From a virus: a stretch of 64,000 bases of DNA. Below, piece by piece: positions 48,014 through 55,975 of this stretch; positions within the stretch are counted from its first letter, which is position 1, and each line of letters opens with the position of its first letter. The notes under the pieces are model-generated. The model saw only the letters and a program-made list of their open reading frames with translations, did not search any database and was not told the origin of the DNA. The translations under genes and the position numbers were made by a program. The stretch is taken from positions 64,001 to 128,000 of IMG/VR virus record IMGVR_UViG_3300005613_002762; one strand, written 5' to 3'.

Positions 48014-48376
48014 TTATTTAAGAGACCTAATTTTATCACGATATTCAATCGCACTTTCAAAGTCTTGGTTTTTTACACAATCATTTAGTTTAGATTGCAA
48101 CTTTGATATTTCTTCTCTGTTTTTCTCTAACTTTTTTATTTGGTCTCTTAACGTAACAGCATCCTCAAATTTTTCTTCTTTAATTGATAGATTTAATTTT
48201 TCTTTTAACACATCAACCTCATCGACTTGGTTAGATTTATTAAAATTTTTTGTCATATAAGACATACTAAAAGATCCGTCAGGTGATGTATATGATCTTT
48301 TATTCCAATTTTTATCATCAAATGATGATGAAAGTAATTCATTAAATAATTTGTCAAATTCGTTCCAATTAAACAT
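48014..48376 (-). CDS. Protein with two UvrB/UvrC motifs (McsA-like Clp adaptor candidate)
   Basis: EEKFEDAVTLRDQIKKL and NQDFESAIEYRDKIRSL. Confidence 0.8.
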   Translation of the reverse strand: MFNWNEFDKLFNELLSSSFDDKNWNKRSYTSPDGSFSMSYMTKNFNKSNQVDEVDVLKEKLNLSIKEEKFEDAVTLRDQIKKLEKNREEISKLQSKLNDCVKNQDFESAIEYRDKIRSLK

Positions 48377-48548: not shown

Positions 48549-50588
48549 ATGTTAGAATTTATGGACGATAGCAACGAAAAATCCAAGAAAAAAACAGATA
48601 GTGGAACACCTGTTTTAGATAACTTTAGTAAAGATTTAAATAAATTAGCTCAAGACGGAAAATTAGATCCCGTTATTGGTAGACAAAGTGAGATATTTAG
48701 AATTGCTCAAATTTTATCAAGAAGAAAAAAGAATAACCCAATTATTATTGGTGAACCAGGAGCCGGAAAAACCGCAATAGTGGAAGGTTTAGCAATGATG
48801 ATCCATAACGGAGAATGTCCCAAAAATTTAATGGATAAAAGGATTGTTTCTTTAGATATGAATTCATTGGTTGCAGGAACCAAATATCGAGGTCAGTTCG
48901 AAGAAAGAATGAAAGCGATAATCGAAGAACTACAAGTTGCCCCAAATATAATTTTATTCATAGATGAAATTCATACTATGGTTGGTGCTGGAAACAGTTC
49001 AGGATCGTTAGATGCTTCAAACATTTTAAAACCAGCGCTTTCTCGAGGAGATATACAATGTGTTGGAGCAACAACTTTAGATGAATATAGAAAACATTTT
49101 GAAAAGGATGGAGCTTTAGATAGACGATTCCAAAAAGTCATTGTCGACCCTTCTTCAAAGGAAGAGACATTTGAAATTCTAAAACAAAGTAAATCAAAAT
49201 ATGAAGACCATCACAAAGTTTCTTATGATGATAAAACTTTATGGATATTTGTTGAGTTAGCTGATCGATATATTACAGATCGTGAGTTTCCCGATAAAGC
49301 GTTTGATATTTTAGATGAGGTTGGGTCGAGAATGCAAGTTGATATAAAACTACCTGAAGAAATTGAAAAATTAAAGGATGAGGCGGCAGCAATTAAACAA
49401 GAAAAATATACTGTAATTAAACAACAAAAATACGAACTTGCCGCAGAACTAAGAGATCGAGAAAGAAATGTTATTTCGAAACTTGAGGAAGAAAAAAAGA
49501 AATTTGAACTTAGTCTATTAACTAGTAAAAGAAGTATTCCTGAAGAATTGATATATGAAGTTGTTTCAAACATGACAAAAATTCCAATTTCAAATATTAA
49601 TTTAGACGAAAGAAACTCTCTAATTAATTTGAATGATAATTTGAATTCAAAGGTGATTGGTCAAGAGGAAGCCGTTAATAAAATTGTCAAATCGATTAGA
49701 AGAAATAGAATCGGAATTAAAGATCCAAATAAACCAATTGGTTCATTTATTTTCTTAGGTTCTACTGGTGTTGGTAAAACATATTTGGCAAAACAATTGG
49801 CAAAAGAAATTTTTGGAAGTGAAGAGAACATGATCCGTGTGGATATGAGTGAATACCAAGAAAAACACACCATCTCTCGTTTAATTGGTTCACCTCCAGG
49901 ATATGTTGGTCACGATGAAGGTGGTCAGTTAACCGAACAAGTTAAAAACAAACCTTATTCTGTTGTATTGTTTGATGAGATTGAAAAGGCACATAAAGAC
50001 ATCTTTTCAACATTACTTCAGTTGTTAGACGATGGTCATATCACAGATTCTTTAGGTCGTAAGATCAACTTCAAAAACTGCTTAATCATTATGACATCTA
50101 ACATTGGTGTTAAGAAATTACAAGATTTTGGAACTGGAATGGGATTTCAGACCAGCAAAAGTGAAGTGGTTAAAGAAGAAGAAAAACAAGAAGTCTTAAA
50201 AAAAGAAATGAAAAAGTTTTTCGCTCCTGAATTTTTAAATAGAATTGATGATGTTGTTATCTTTAATTCTTTGGACAAAGAACATATTGATGTTATTACA
50301 AAATTAGAAATTGACAAACTCTTAAAAAGAGTGTCTGAAAAAAACTACCACTTCACATATGATCAAGACTTAGTCGACTATATTTCAAAAGTTGGATTTG
50401 ACGAAACATTTGGAGCAAGACCAATCAAAAGAGCTATTCAAAATAATATTGAAGATCTAATTTCAGAAAAAATCCTAATGATGGAGATTGAAGAACATAA
50501 AGACTATGTTTTAAAAATTGAAAATGATGTGGTGGTGGTATCAAATAAAGAAGAAAAAGTAAAAAGAGGTAGAAAAAAGAAAGAATAA
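48549..50588 (+). CDS. clpC: ClpC-type AAA+ unfoldase lacking the Clp-N domain
   Basis: LDPVIGR, GEPGAGKT, FIDEIH, UVR-type M-domain YELAAELRD, GSTGVGKT, GYVG, LFDEIEKAH, MGF loop, GARP. Confidence 0.9.
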   Translation: MLEFMDDSNEKSKKKTDSGTPVLDNFSKDLNKLAQDGKLDPVIGRQSEIFRIAQILSRRKKNNPIIIGEPGAGKTAIVEGLAMMIHNGECPKNLMDKRIVSLDMNSLVAGTKYRGQFEERMKAIIEELQVAPNIILFIDEIHTMVGAGNSSGSLDASNILKPALSRGDIQCVGATTLDEYRKHFEKDGALDRRFQKVIVDPSSKEETFEILKQSKSKYEDHHKVSYDDKTLWIFVELADRYITDREFPDKAFDILDEVGSRMQVDIKLPEEIEKLKDEAAAIKQEKYTVIKQQKYELAAELRDRERNVISKLEEEKKKFELSLLTSKRSIPEELIYEVVSNMTKIPISNINLDERNSLINLNDNLNSKVIGQEEAVNKIVKSIRRNRIGIKDPNKPIGSFIFLGSTGVGKTYLAKQLAKEIFGSEENMIRVDMSEYQEKHTISRLIGSPPGYVGHDEGGQLTEQVKNKPYSVVLFDEIEKAHKDIFSTLLQLLDDGHITDSLGRKINFKNCLIIMTSNIGVKKLQDFGTGMGFQTSKSEVVKEEEKQEVLKKEMKKFFAPEFLNRIDDVVIFNSLDKEHIDVITKLEIDKLLKRVSEKNYHFTYDQDLVDYISKVGFDETFGARPIKRAIQNNIEDLISEKILMMEIEEHKDYVLKIENDVVVVSNKEEKVKRGRKKKE

Positions 50589-52271: not shown

Positions 52272-53303
52272 ATGGATCTAAATAAATTTAAAGAACTTCT
52301 TTCAGTCCCGTCTAAAACTTATCAAGAAGATAGAATGGTTAATTATCTTATTGATGAACTTTCACAAATTAACGGGATTGAGGTGGTCTGTGATGAACAT
52401 AACAATATCTATGTCACCAAAGGAACATTAGATGAAGGTGAATTTTACCCAATGTTTATCTCACACACCGACACGGTTCATAATATCGTTGATGAAATTA
52501 TAGTTAAAGAAGAACACCTTCTTCGTCCTTATACATTCGGAAAAGACTTTGGGTCTGAACAAGTATTATGTTTAAAGGCTTACGATAAAGATGACAAACC
52601 AACTGGTATTGGTGGTGACGACAAATGTGGAATCTTTATTTGTTTAGAATTACTTAAACAATTAGACAAAGTTAAGATCGCATTTTTTGTTTCAGAAGAA
52701 ACAGGATGTCATGGGTCAAAAATGGTTGATTTAAACTTTTTAAAAGATGTTGGTTATTGCTCCCAATACGATGCACCTGGTGATCACTTGATTTCATATA
52801 GTTGTATGGGAACCGTGTTATTTGATGAAAACTCTGAGTTTTTTGATGTCGCATATAGATCCATTTCAGAAGGTTTTAAAAACGAAATGATGGTTCAAGC
52901 TCACCCATATACAGATATTATGATGATTAAACAAAAATCAAATCTATCTTGTATTAATATGTCTTGTGGTTATTACAACATGCACACATCAAATGAGTTT
53001 GTTTGTATTTCTGATGTTGAGAGAGCAATTGTTGCAGGAAAAAACATGGTTGATAATTTGGGTTTAAAAAAATATGAATTTAGATCTGAACCAAAATCAA
53101 CAACAACCACAACAACTTTATTTGATTTTGAGGATCAGGATCCATTTTACGATGAGGTTCATCAACTTACATCTATTGATGTTATTGAGGATAAGGATGG
53201 TATTGTAATTGTTGATTTCTACGACGACAATAAATTCTATATTGACGATGAAGATGGTTATAAATTATACGAGATTTTAAAGAACCGTTATTCTTTAGAT
53301 TAA
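52272..53303 (+). CDS. M28/M20-type zinc peptidase
   Basis: SHTDTV, GGDDKCG, EETGC.GS, GYYNMHT. Confidence 0.85.
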   Translation: MDLNKFKELLSVPSKTYQEDRMVNYLIDELSQINGIEVVCDEHNNIYVTKGTLDEGEFYPMFISHTDTVHNIVDEIIVKEEHLLRPYTFGKDFGSEQVLCLKAYDKDDKPTGIGGDDKCGIFICLELLKQLDKVKIAFFVSEETGCHGSKMVDLNFLKDVGYCSQYDAPGDHLISYSCMGTVLFDENSEFFDVAYRSISEGFKNEMMVQAHPYTDIMMIKQKSNLSCINMSCGYYNMHTSNEFVCISDVERAIVAGKNMVDNLGLKKYEFRSEPKSTTTTTTLFDFEDQDPFYDEVHQLTSIDVIEDKDGIVIVDFYDDNKFYIDDEDGYKLYEILKNRYSLD

Positions 53304-53305
53304 TG

Positions 53306-54439
53306 TTAATTAATTCTATACTCAGTCGGGTCAAATAAACCTGGCTGAGTTGCCATTGCAATCACACTATCAACATCAGAAACACCTATTTTAGAGTTCC
53401 AATTTTGTCGTGAGGTTCCAACTCTAAATGTTACTTTGAGTGTTTCAGGATCCACCTTTTCAACTTTAAGGTAATGTTTTTTATCGGGTAATTGTTTAAA
53501 TTGAAATAAATCCAACTTTCCAAGTTTTTGCATTACTTCAATATAATCTGAATCAATTTCTTCATGAGCTTTTTCAATATACTCATCCATCAGATCTTCA
53601 AGTTTTTCACAAGTTTCAGATTCAAAAATTTCATTATCCCAAACATTATATTCAATTTCGTAATACTCAGGTGGGTGATTATTAAAACCTCTTTCTATCG
53701 CACTGAATAATAGATCTAAAACATTCTCATCAAAGTCCCCTTTATCTATATATAACTGAACAAGATTTCCCCAAGTTATAAAGTAGGTTCTAAAACAATT
53801 TGTAAAATTACTCTTTCCCCAATTTTCAATACCAAATTGTTTTAGACCATCACAATAGGTTTTCTCCATTAGTTCTTGAGCTCCACTTGAAACCGCACGA
53901 TCTTTTCCCATACAAACGATTTCATCAATTGCATCACCAAGTCTAGGAAAAAACTTATCTAATATTGTTGGTAGATCACCTCCGCCATCATATCTTATAC
54001 GACCGTTATTTGTTCGTATAAAATCTTTACTTGTAGATGGGTCTAAAAACTCGGCAAGTTGTTTTAGTTTTAACATCGCAGAATCACAAAAATAACCTAA
54101 GGTATATCCCTCACTCCAATCATCGTATGCTCTATCTTGACACTCACTATAAAAGTCCCACTGACCGTAATACATTCTATCGTAATTTACGGCCTCCCAC
54201 TCACCATCACTACCTTCTTCATATGTCTCTTGAAAGAAAAACTTTAAAAACTGTTCTAAATCATCAAAATGAAACAATAGACCATGTTTGGTTACTTCAA
54301 TAGTATCTCTGAAGTTATTTCCATCTTTATCATAGAAATCAACGTCATTATAATCCAACTTATTTTTATTTAAAAGTAGAATTTTTCTAAAATCTTCTAG
54401 TTCATCTATGTCGTTTTCTATAAGAAGTCTTTTTTTCAT
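53306..54439 (-). CDS. Acidic hypothetical protein
   Basis: 377 aa with an MKKRLLIE leader. Confidence 0.75.
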   Translation of the reverse strand: MKKRLLIENDIDELEDFRKILLLNKNKLDYNDVDFYDKDGNNFRDTIEVTKHGLLFHFDDLEQFLKFFFQETYEEGSDGEWEAVNYDRMYYGQWDFYSECQDRAYDDWSEGYTLGYFCDSAMLKLKQLAEFLDPSTSKDFIRTNNGRIRYDGGGDLPTILDKFFPRLGDAIDEIVCMGKDRAVSSGAQELMEKTYCDGLKQFGIENWGKSNFTNCFRTYFITWGNLVQLYIDKGDFDENVLDLLFSAIERGFNNHPPEYYEIEYNVWDNEIFESETCEKLEDLMDEYIEKAHEEIDSDYIEVMQKLGKLDLFQFKQLPDKKHYLKVEKVDPETLKVTFRVGTSRQNWNSKIGVSDVDSVIAMATQPGLFDPTEYRIN

Positions 54440-54477: not shown

Positions 54478-54501
54478 TATATTTGTATTATAGTTCTTTG
54501 A
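54478..54501 (+). promoter_or_regulatory. Bacteroidetes-type -7 promoter plus boxA-like element for tmRNA
   Basis: TATATTTG 54478-54485; GTTCTTTGA 54493-54501. Confidence 0.65.
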
Positions 54502-54522
54502 AAATAGTCATTTAAGATATAT

Positions 54523-54941
54523 GGGCCTATATCGGATTTGACGGGCGTTGGTTGGATAAAAGAAGCATGTAGGGACTAAGTTAATCTCTTTAAAAACTGA
54601 CTTAGAAAACAACTGGCAATGTGCTAAACAAAATGGAAACTCTTGGTTTACTAAGAGGTTCTGAAGTTACTGTAGCTTAATAAGATACGGAAACGGGGGG
54701 TCGGTCAGACAGATAACCTAGCAACAGAAGTCGTAGATGAGTTGGTTTTCACTCTAAAAGAAAACAACGGTCTCGTTCAGAGGGCTACCGTAACAAAAGT
54801 GAACTCGACACAGTTTTTGGTAACAATGTCAAAATAGGAACCAAATATTTTGGAAGGTATGAAAAACCTTAACCTAAACATGTAGTTGTCTTTTTGACAA
54901 AACGAGCCGGACGAGGGAGTCGGAGCCCTCTAGGTCCACCA
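54523..54941 (+). ncRNA. ssrA: tmRNA
   Basis: 5' GGGCCTA-TATCGGATTTGAC pairs with 3' TAGGTCC-ACCA, including the G3:U alanine determinant; GCATGTAG/CATGT helix; tag ORF 54615-54680 GNVLNKMETLGLLRGSEVTVA followed by TAA TAA. Confidence 0.9.
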
Positions 54942-54944
54942 ATT

Positions 54945-54978
54945 GATCCCATCATTTAATTATGATGGGATTTTTTTA
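54945..54978 (+). terminator. Terminator after tmRNA
   Basis: ATCCCATCAT...ATGATGGGAT plus a T7 run. Confidence 0.85.
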
Positions 54979-55021
54979 TGCATTAAAATTATTGTGTATT
55001 TGATTGTGATTTTTTTGAGCA

Positions 55022-55049: not shown

Positions 55050-55975
55050 TGTTTTTGCCGGTCGCTCCATCTTTTTAAAAAAGAAACGCTGAGATTACAC
55101 GTTTGTTGCGAGAACCTTTAGAGTCATTATTGTTTCTACTCTTATCCACTTTCTTTTGGAAAGTATTTCTCAGTGTTGGTTATTTAGGTGAACCACTCCT
55201 TGAGATCTTATCTACACTCTTACTACTTGACTCTCTTCGAGGATGCCTCCCCAACTCGTCCTTGCGGGATTAGAGATCTTTGGTAAAAATACACTTGGTC
55301 TTGGGAACCTCATGTGCCACGGACAGCCCGTGACTAAGTAAACACCTTTCGACAAGATCTGACAGACACTTTTCCTTATTTTATTAATTAATTTGACTTA
55401 ATACAATAGTCATAAGTTTGTGTCGTGGATTATCGAAGTAGTGGTCTGCCAACCGAGCCAACCCATTTTTTGAACGAGTCGATACTCAACTACTCCGTGA
55501 AATGTCCCCATTTCCATATTTCAAGACTACTTCGAAACTAACCCCTTGGTAGAAGTTGGTTAAGGTTAGTAACGACACCACTCGTACACTAACATACCTT
55601 TCGGCTTTAAGTATCCTTTTATATTGGGAAACGCAATAATGAAATCGGATAATCTCATGTTTTGCAATATCCCTACGAGTTATTCCTATTGTTGTTCCCA
55701 ACTCAACTGAACGACCCACATCGCCCAATCATCTAACCACTTTCCCTACAGCGTTGCCCTCGGTACTAAAGGTTAAACGGTATCCCGCTTGTGTACTCAA
55801 GCTCCTAAAAGAAGCCGCAAATCATCTAACACAAATGACTCACTTTATCCTACTTTCGTAGTTTATTTTATGGACCATACACAGCCCAATATCTTTATCA
55901 TTCAAAGATGGAAATTTTATTCCAATTACTTGTCAAAGAATCTGACAAAACTTTTCCTGAACGGATAATCTATTT
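55050..55975 (-). ncRNA. Large ornate structured RNA, GOLLD-like (~900 nt)
   Basis: No credible ORF, GC raised relative to flanks, own promoters and terminator; long-range helices CUGAGA/UCUCAG and CGAAGUAGU/ACUACUUCG; GNRA-type loops; 3' end GUGUAAUCUCAGCG recalls GOLLD (from memory); near tRNAs. Confidence 0.7.

Follow-up and report, generated by a model that had tools for sequence, protein, structure and literature searches.

A one-piece tmRNA of giant phages with its own conserved tag and an eight-nucleotide T-loop of a type also found in bacteria

Introduction

In a stretch of 64,000 nucleotides of viral DNA (the window), a preliminary description had placed a tmRNA with two unusual features, a tag of 21 residues that does not end in the usual (Y)ALAA and a T-loop of 8 nt. 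The locus raises the question of whether such an RNA could be a working tmRNA and, if it is, which factor reads its tag. Phage tmRNAs are known from the mycobacteriophage Bxz1 group, Bacillus phage G and DS6A (PMC4131195), and tmRNAs have also been found in huge phages with ARAGORN (PMC7162821). The window corresponds to bases 64001-128000 of a 149,190-bp IMG/VR record, estimated by CheckV to be 51% complete. Related contigs measure 250-304 kb at 93-100% completeness, which makes the window part of a phage genome of ~300 kb. A blastn search against 50,697 GenBank phage records gave no match, so no cultured relative was on hand, and a partial literature search found no published description of the phage family, of its tag or of the G/G type of T-loop analyzed here.

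Results

A complete tmRNA gene with its own flanking signals

Both ARAGORN and Rfam model RF00023 had been named as checks on the proposed gene. The full Rfam model matched exactly 54523-54941 on the plus strand (model positions 1-374; 73.1 bits, E 1.7e-26), above the gathering score of 47, and thereby confirmed the coordinates of the preliminary description. ARAGORN reported six tRNAs in the window and no tmRNA.

The gene codes for a one-piece tmRNA of 419 nt including an encoded CCA, with all of its parts on the plus strand. The 5' strand of the acceptor stem, GGGCCUA (54523-54529), pairs with UAGGUCC (54931-54937), G3·U70 included, and is completed by the discriminator A and the encoded CCA (54938-54941), which were read directly from the sequence, as was the GAC...GGAC junction. 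The GG of the D-loop analogue (54534-54535), expected partners of U55 and C56, was invariant in 65 of 65 unique sequences listed from the family. Pseudoknot 1 occupies 54571-54605, with stems 54571-54575/54585-54589 and 54576-54581/54600-54605, the second of which was taken from the alignment. The tag frame GNVLNKMETLGLLRGSEVTVA (54615-54677) ends at tandem stops UAA UAA (54678-54683) in the loop of helix 5 (stems 54666-54674/54686-54694). Finally, the T-arm (54913-54930) pairs GAGGG (54913-54917) with CCCUC (54926-54930) around the loop AGUCGGAG (54918-54925).

A promoter-like TAnnTTTG element, TATATTTG, was found at 54478-54485 (+), ~38 nt before the mature 5' end, and TAnnTTTG also lies 29-50 nt 5' of the gene in at least 54 of the 58 upstream regions tallied from related phages. 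Between this element and the tmRNA there is a conserved leader box, GTTCTTTGAAAA (54493-54504, +), which recurs, slightly varied, in nearly all of the upstream regions examined from relatives. On the 3' side, an intrinsic terminator (54945-54979, +) starts four bases past the CCA and consists of an 11-bp hairpin followed by a T run; terminator-like sites numbered three against 0.3 expected, and equivalent hairpins also occur 3' of the gene in relatives. Single-sequence folding gave a z-score of -0.97, a measure that is uninformative for a pseudoknotted RNA. An ssrA fragment of the attP type was also considered and was ruled out, as the gene is complete at both ends.

Conservation of the RNA in a large phage family

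A scan of IMG/VR with the T-arm returned 39 loci, 34 of them with the identical 8-nt loop AGTCGGAG, so that 34 other viral contigs, from many samples, share the loop of the window. A second scan of IMG/VR, with the first 17 nt of the tag, returned at least 119 loci. At least 93 full-length genes were extracted from these scans, 90 of which were usable, and 65 unique sequences entered the alignment.

RNAalifold predicted 58 pairs from the 65 unique sequences listed, 25 of them with compensatory double changes, which fell in helix 2, pseudoknot 1, helix 5, a stem of pseudoknot 2, the hairpin of pseudoknot 4 and the T-stem. One pair of pseudoknot 1 was CG in 30, AU in 24 and GC in 11 of these sequences and another was AU in 58 and UA in 7, while a pair of helix 5 was UA in 56 and AU in 7. 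The five T-stem pairs were kept in 65 of the 65, four of them with compensatory changes. At least nine acceptor variants occur in the family, each keeping seven pairs and G3·U70; these pairs were checked directly, and because extraction had demanded seven pairs the check is not independent evidence. The acceptor pairing drawn by RNAalifold was rejected as wrong, having been caused by alignment gaps.

The tag frame

The tag frame has 21 codons and resumes at GGC, which Rfam aligns to the consensus resume codon. In the window tmRNA, A89 stands at -4 from the resume codon G93, the position at which E. coli tmRNA requires an A (the A86 ruler, PMC2481249). A frame one base later (GCA AUG UGC UAA) likewise has an A at -4; this short frame was ruled out only by the coding signature further downstream, not by the ruler.

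That signature was clear in the family. The frame was exactly 21 codons long in all 109 loci listed, which contained 31 unique coding sequences, and 9, 4 and 14 of 15 sites varied at the first, second and third codon positions, respectively, when the search-pattern part was left out (the first 17 nt of the tag were the search pattern, and invariance there carries no information). Several residues were kept through different codons: E8 as GAA or GAG, G11 as GGT, GGA or GGG, L12 as TTA, CTT or CTA and R14 as AGA, CGT or CGC, with three codons each for V18 and A21 and several for V20. As third positions are the most variable and invariant residues appear in several codons, the comparison indicates that the tag peptide is translated and under purifying selection, and so that some factor reads it.

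The consensus tag is G-N-V-L-[ND]-[KN]-[ML]-E-[TAV]-[LIV]-G-L-[LIV]-[RS]-[GTE]-[SQ]-[ED]-V-[TAS]-V-A, followed in the family loci listed by TAA or TGA. Nearly all members listed end in EVTVA, with EVAVA, EVSVA and DVTVA as variants, and (Y)ALAA or LAA-COOH, the C-terminal ClpXP degron of ssrA type, is not present on the phage tag. The long tag without (Y)ALAA thus held up in the family, its frame being kept, its coding signature evident and its end VTVA. Since the loop recurs in 34 other contigs and the 21-codon frame is kept, neither feature is due to chance or to a sequencing error. The window gene is a genuine tmRNA under selection, and very probably one active in ribosome rescue.

Two kinds of T-loop in the same phages

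The T-arm has the usual 5-bp stem, but the canonical 7-nt loop (U54 U55 C56 R57 A58 N N) is replaced by AGUCGGAG. The 8-nt loop within a GAGGG/CCCUC stem, as it had originally been read, is a real feature of the window, and the loop recurs in its 34 counterparts. Among the 90 usable genes listed, 41 had the 8-nt loop (AGTCGGAG in 39 and AGTCAGAG in 2) and the remaining 49 a UUCGANN loop. The sole variable position of the 8-nt loop is 57 (G or A), which is the purine position of normal T-loops. This loop occurs with five acceptors (GGGCCTA, GGGTCTA, GGGCCAA, GGGGATG and GGGGAAG) and with three T-stems that are compensatory variants of each other (GAGGG/CCCTC, CGGGG/CCCCG and GAGGA/TCCTC); in the genes listed, the 7-nt loop goes with four other acceptors. 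The same tags and the same neighbours were found with both loop types among the phage loci listed. In a tree of the whole RNA the 7-nt and 8-nt forms are intermingled, a sign that the molecule is a mosaic, and the tree says nothing on a single origin of the 8-nt loop. The six tRNAs of the window all keep canonical UUCGA T-loops, GGUUCGANNCC.

ARAGORN found none of the 8-nt loop genes of the family. It does call a phage tmRNA at L008:2952-3316(+), which has the acceptor and T-stems of the family, a UUCGAUU loop and an otherwise diverged body, and gives its tag as EETEELELCCA. CCA is encoded (as ACCA) in all 8-nt loop genes listed, and about a quarter of the 7-nt loop genes listed have ACAC, ACAA or ACTT in its place. 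The distance from the leader box to the 5' end is ~15 nt longer in the GGGCCTA acceptor group and in most other 8-nt loop genes.

Three family tmRNAs contain a group I intron of ~224 nt (L053:3940-4164(-), L096:2963-3186(+) and L121:1490-1712(-); RF00028, 86-96 bits). The intron follows the second base of the T-loop, UU|CGAGU, and the spliced loop would read UUCGAGU or UUCGACU. A partial literature search found no report of T-loop introns in phage tmRNAs. The TAnnTTTG element upstream of the gene fits Bacteroidota promoters. Introns are known in T-loops of bacterial tmRNA, and those at subsite 3 have been reported only from the class Bacteroidia (PMC11915505); if the numbering of that study runs as we assume, the phage intron site is subsite 3. 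The promoter-like motif and the intron subsite suggest a host among the Bacteroidota.

The same loop type in bacterial tmRNAs

A strict T-arm scan of one genome per species, covering 185,579 species, found nothing, a result that taken alone would wrongly suggest a loop restricted to phages. A scan of the same kind with a looser T-arm pattern found two cellular contigs, L133 and L134. The tmRNA of L133 (contig JBLNEM010000097.1) is the only one of a 4.2-Mb genome (G006), scores 151.7 bits, encodes the tag ANNDFALAA and has the T-arm GCGGG-AGUCAGAG-CCCGC. Nearby genes encode the S1-domain tail of an RNase R, SmpB, an AmiC-like amidase, MurI (glutamate racemase) and RNase PH. The second contig comes from a Desulfobacteraceae MAG, in which the gene (L134:2178-2525(+)) is a second and weaker tmRNA (79.9 bits) with the T-arm CGGGG-AGUCGGAG-CCCCG. 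Its tag is apparently long and non-ALAA. The gene is surrounded by small unknown genes and by two tRNAs, tRNA-Trp and one with anticodon CUA, and probably sits on a phage or mobile element.

G006 and 40 relatives were then compared. A tmRNA was found in 38 of these 41 genomes, and loops were compared in 30 sequences including that of G006, in a register that allows one extra base besides positions 54-60. The loops were AGGCAGAG in 12 sequences, G-GGCAGNN-C in 4, and AGUCAGAG, UGGCAGUG and GGGCAGAA in 1 each, together with UGCAANU in 6, G-UGCGANU-C in 3, and UUGCGAAG and UGCGAA in 1 each. Positions 54 and 58 were G/G in 19 sequences, U/A in 11 and mixed in none, and the phage family obeys the same rule, with U/A or G/G and no mixed case. 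The clade around G006 thus has chromosomal tmRNAs with 8- or 9-nt T-loops and G at 54 and 58. When eight G/G-type bacterial tmRNA genes were submitted to ARAGORN none was found, and annotation based on this program probably lacks ssrA for G006-related genomes. Across G006 and 400 further genomes drawn evenly from the phylum, a G/G loop with a GCGGG/CCCGC stem occurred in 1 of 401, G006 itself.

The phage loop is best read as an extra A followed by G54 U55 C56 G57 G58 A59 G60, in which the U55-C56-R57 core is kept. As positions 54 and 58 are never mixed, G54·G58, a pair proposed because these positions covary within two groups of related sequences, looks like a stand-in for the U54·A58 reverse-Hoogsteen pair, that is, a structural alternative and not a means of nuclease evasion. 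An alternative register, with U3·A7 inside AGUCGGAG, may also apply. A tRNA selection study by Zagryadskaya et al. in 2003 reportedly recovered G54-G58 in functional tRNAs. With G instead of U at position 54, the usual m5U54 would be missing. The 8-nt loop is compatible with ordinary trans-translation, because its type is the sole tmRNA loop of free-living bacteria in which it stands beside smpB and goes with ALAA-type tags. As these are bona fide ssrA genes, the canonical 7-nt loop is a usual feature of tmRNA but not a required one.

Neighbouring genes and possible partners

Upstream of the tmRNA, a gene at 48549-50588 (+) codes for a ClpC-like double AAA+ unfoldase of 679 aa (Pfam AAA, AAA_lid_9, UVR, AAA_2 and ClpB_D2-small). 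The protein has the features of the ClpC class, namely two AAA+ modules, a short middle domain of UVR type and a ClpP-docking loop, and aligns with Staphylococcus aureus ClpC from residue 148 of the latter (PDB 6em8, E 3e-217), its MGF lying opposite the AGF of 6em8 in accordance with the [LIVAM]-G-F signature of the docking loop. Pfam gave no Clp_N hit, and the residues of S. aureus ClpC before 148 are unaligned; in bacterial ClpC the N-domain binds adaptors and phospho-arginine. The ClpC gene lies 2.7-5.6 kb 5' of the tag in 25 of 25 listed loci whose upstream flank measures at least 7.5 kb and on the strand of the tmRNA in 63 of 63 loci listed, with a median identity of 80% among the related phages listed. 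As these phages are close kin, the linkage represents an inherited gene order and not independent evidence of co-occurrence.

Divergent from the ClpC gene, a gene at 48014-48376 (-) encodes a protein of 120 aa with two UVR motifs (Pfam UVR, E 1.5e-17). This protein was found in 26 related loci listed, always at the same offset, and may interact with the middle domain of ClpC. An M20/M42-like peptidase (52272-53303, +; Pfam Peptidase_M20 3e-6, M42 9e-6) was present in 91 of 127 loci listed. Directly upstream of the tmRNA gene and divergent from it is a gene for a 377-aa protein without Pfam hits (53306-54439, -), always on the opposite strand in the 65 loci listed; with a median identity of only 35% where that of ClpC is 80%, this gene appears to be evolving fast. 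Convergent with the tmRNA, a GOLLD RNA (55086-55497, -; RF02032, 308 bits) covers the 3' half of this RNA as modelled by Rfam, and GOLLD-like sequence follows the tmRNA on its 3' side in 51 of 65 related loci listed. The terminators of the two RNAs stand back to back. The conserved order is UVR protein, ClpC, M20-like peptidase, 377-aa protein, tmRNA and GOLLD.

Neither smpB nor clpP was found in the 149-kb record, which is 51% complete. Among eight relatives at least 93% complete, smpB was found in one, which has a 7-nt loop (G004), and the same phage was the only one of five relatives searched to contain clpP. In G004 (296 kb; L131 and L132), SmpB scored 143 bits and ClpP 160 bits. The four other relatives searched for both genes gave neither, and three further near-complete relatives searched for smpB gave none. 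A gene for bS21, which had been grouped with the tmRNA and the tRNAs into a translation-quality-control module, lies 16.5 kb upstream of the tmRNA; bS21 is not part of a tight module, and the case for this grouping is weak.

Discussion

The best explanation overall, and in our judgment a likely one, is that the window encodes a functional phage one-piece tmRNA with its own tag and a T-loop that is a structural alternative to the canonical one. The RNA would have a promoter and a terminator of its own and be processed after transcription, and its G3·U70 pair would direct charging with alanine. It would act with EF-Tu, ribosomes and SmpB, the latter most likely that of the host, because most related phages lack smpB. 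In its tRNA-like part, U55, C56 and R57 would meet the invariant GG of the D-loop, with a G54·G58 pair and one extra 5' A in the loop. Stalled ribosomes would thus be rescued during infection, and (A)GNVLNKMETLGLLRGSEVTVA would be added to the unfinished protein.

Most parts of this RNA are those of standard SsrA (RF00023): G3·U70, the GAC/GGAC junction, the GG of the D-loop, a T-stem of 5 bp, the CCA, pseudoknot 1, a tag frame with A at -4, stops in the loop of helix 5 and further pseudoknots. It differs from the standard in a tag of 21 residues ending in VTVA instead of about 10 ending in ALAA, in a T-loop of 8 nt with G at 54 and 58, and in belonging to phages that mostly lack smpB. With the tmRNAs of the Bxz1 group, phage G and huge phages it shares being a complete tmRNA among tRNA genes in a large phage, but it belongs to a separate family of very large size (more than 119 IMG/VR contigs), which has a conserved tag of its own and ClpC as a constant neighbour. 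The likeness to the tmRNAs of the G006 clade is confined to the loop, which in both consists of one extra nucleotide plus G54-N55-C56-R57-G58-A-G (AGUCAGAG in G006 and AGGCAGAG in 12 relatives). The ssrA genes of that clade are GC-rich, cellular and located beside smpB, and their tags are ordinary (ANNDFALAA in G006; ANNEYALAA and ANTNYALAA in relatives with 7-nt loops). The loop is probably no phage trick, being a rare natural type that some bacteria also have in their own tmRNA. By analogy with E. coli ssrA, which is served by SspB and ClpXP, the phage tag could be regarded as having two parts, a conserved internal part and a non-polar C-terminus. It differs from the E. coli tag in having neither sequence similarity to it nor an SspB, and its candidate unfoldase is a ClpC without N-domain, not ClpX.

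As the factor that reads the tag, the neighbouring ClpC without N-domain, docking on the ClpP of the host, is our favoured candidate, which we put forward tentatively. The earlier idea that tagged proteins are routed to the phage ClpC is plausible, and the upstream position of ClpC in 25 of 25 loci is consistent with its reading the tag without amounting to proof. The main alternative is that host ClpXP, ClpAP, Lon or a tail-specific protease reads the tag and that the phage ClpC merely lies nearby and serves a different purpose, for instance in general proteostasis or remodelling. We consider this possible but somewhat unlikely. The small non-polar residues VA at the end of the tag resemble known degrons, ClpP was not found in the record of the window or in four of the five relatives searched, and the phage ClpC has no N-domain, all of which would suit host proteases. 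However, conservation extends along all 21 residues and is not confined to the end, which speaks for a dedicated reader whose recognition goes beyond the C-terminal dipeptide; ClpX recognises LAA-COOH, which is missing from the phage tag, and the constant linkage of ClpC and tmRNA in the loci listed also counts against reading by host proteases. A further reading holds that the tag is not a degron at all, in which case ribosomes would only be freed and the peptide kept to avoid degradation or for a non-proteolytic fate. The tag is wholly unlike those of ALAA type, and other phage tmRNAs also have long non-ALAA tags (for example that of L008 as called by ARAGORN), but strong purifying selection at many tag positions is hard to square with a passive tail and the non-polar C-terminus resembles known degrons, so we regard this reading as improbable.

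The T-loop had initially been thought to evade host nucleases or toxins, and an escape from a nuclease, a toxin or a T-loop-modifying enzyme of the host would agree with the change of both U54 and A58, which should make m5U54 of the TrmA type impossible, with the rarity of the loop in the evenly sampled phylum, where only the query genome had it with that stem, and with its maintenance across a large phage lineage. This explanation is not supported by the comparison and is very unlikely, since a bacterial clade has the same loop type as its sole chromosomal tmRNA loop, sister phages with identical tags and neighbours have canonical loops, and six of six tRNAs in the window keep UUCGA. We know of no T-loop-directed defence, although a factor specific to tmRNA may exist. 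The RNA could also be conceived as a decoy, a role proposed for the TLD-only tmRNA of mycobacteriophage DS6A, and would then sequester the SmpB of the host and thereby block trans-translation in the host; phage decoys consisting of a tRNA-like domain have been described (PMC4131195), and smpB is missing from most relatives searched. A decoy would not need the mRNA-like domain, the pseudoknots and the coding tag frame, all of which are conserved here, and we give this idea hardly any credence.

A bolder proposal is that the extra A and G54·G58 form a distinct, undescribed architecture specific to the tmRNA T-loop and that, jointly, the phages possess a private pathway of tmRNA, degron and ClpC. 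We hold this combination to be doubtful. If it were true, the loop would change the modification and handling of the tRNA-like domain, the ClpC without N-domain and host ClpP, perhaps with the UVR protein as adaptor, would read a phage degron of 21 residues, and the fate of stalled translation products would be decided by the phage and not by the host.

The blindness of ARAGORN to a large family of giant-phage tmRNAs and to at least one bacterial clade means that surveys and annotation pipelines relying on this program undercount these genes. Moreover, the change at positions 54 and 58 from U·A to G·G, seen independently in phages and bacteria, constitutes a natural experiment on the tRNA elbow. 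Finally, with the tag conserved over its full length and an unfoldase gene always alongside, the redirection of stalled proteins by the phage is now a testable question.
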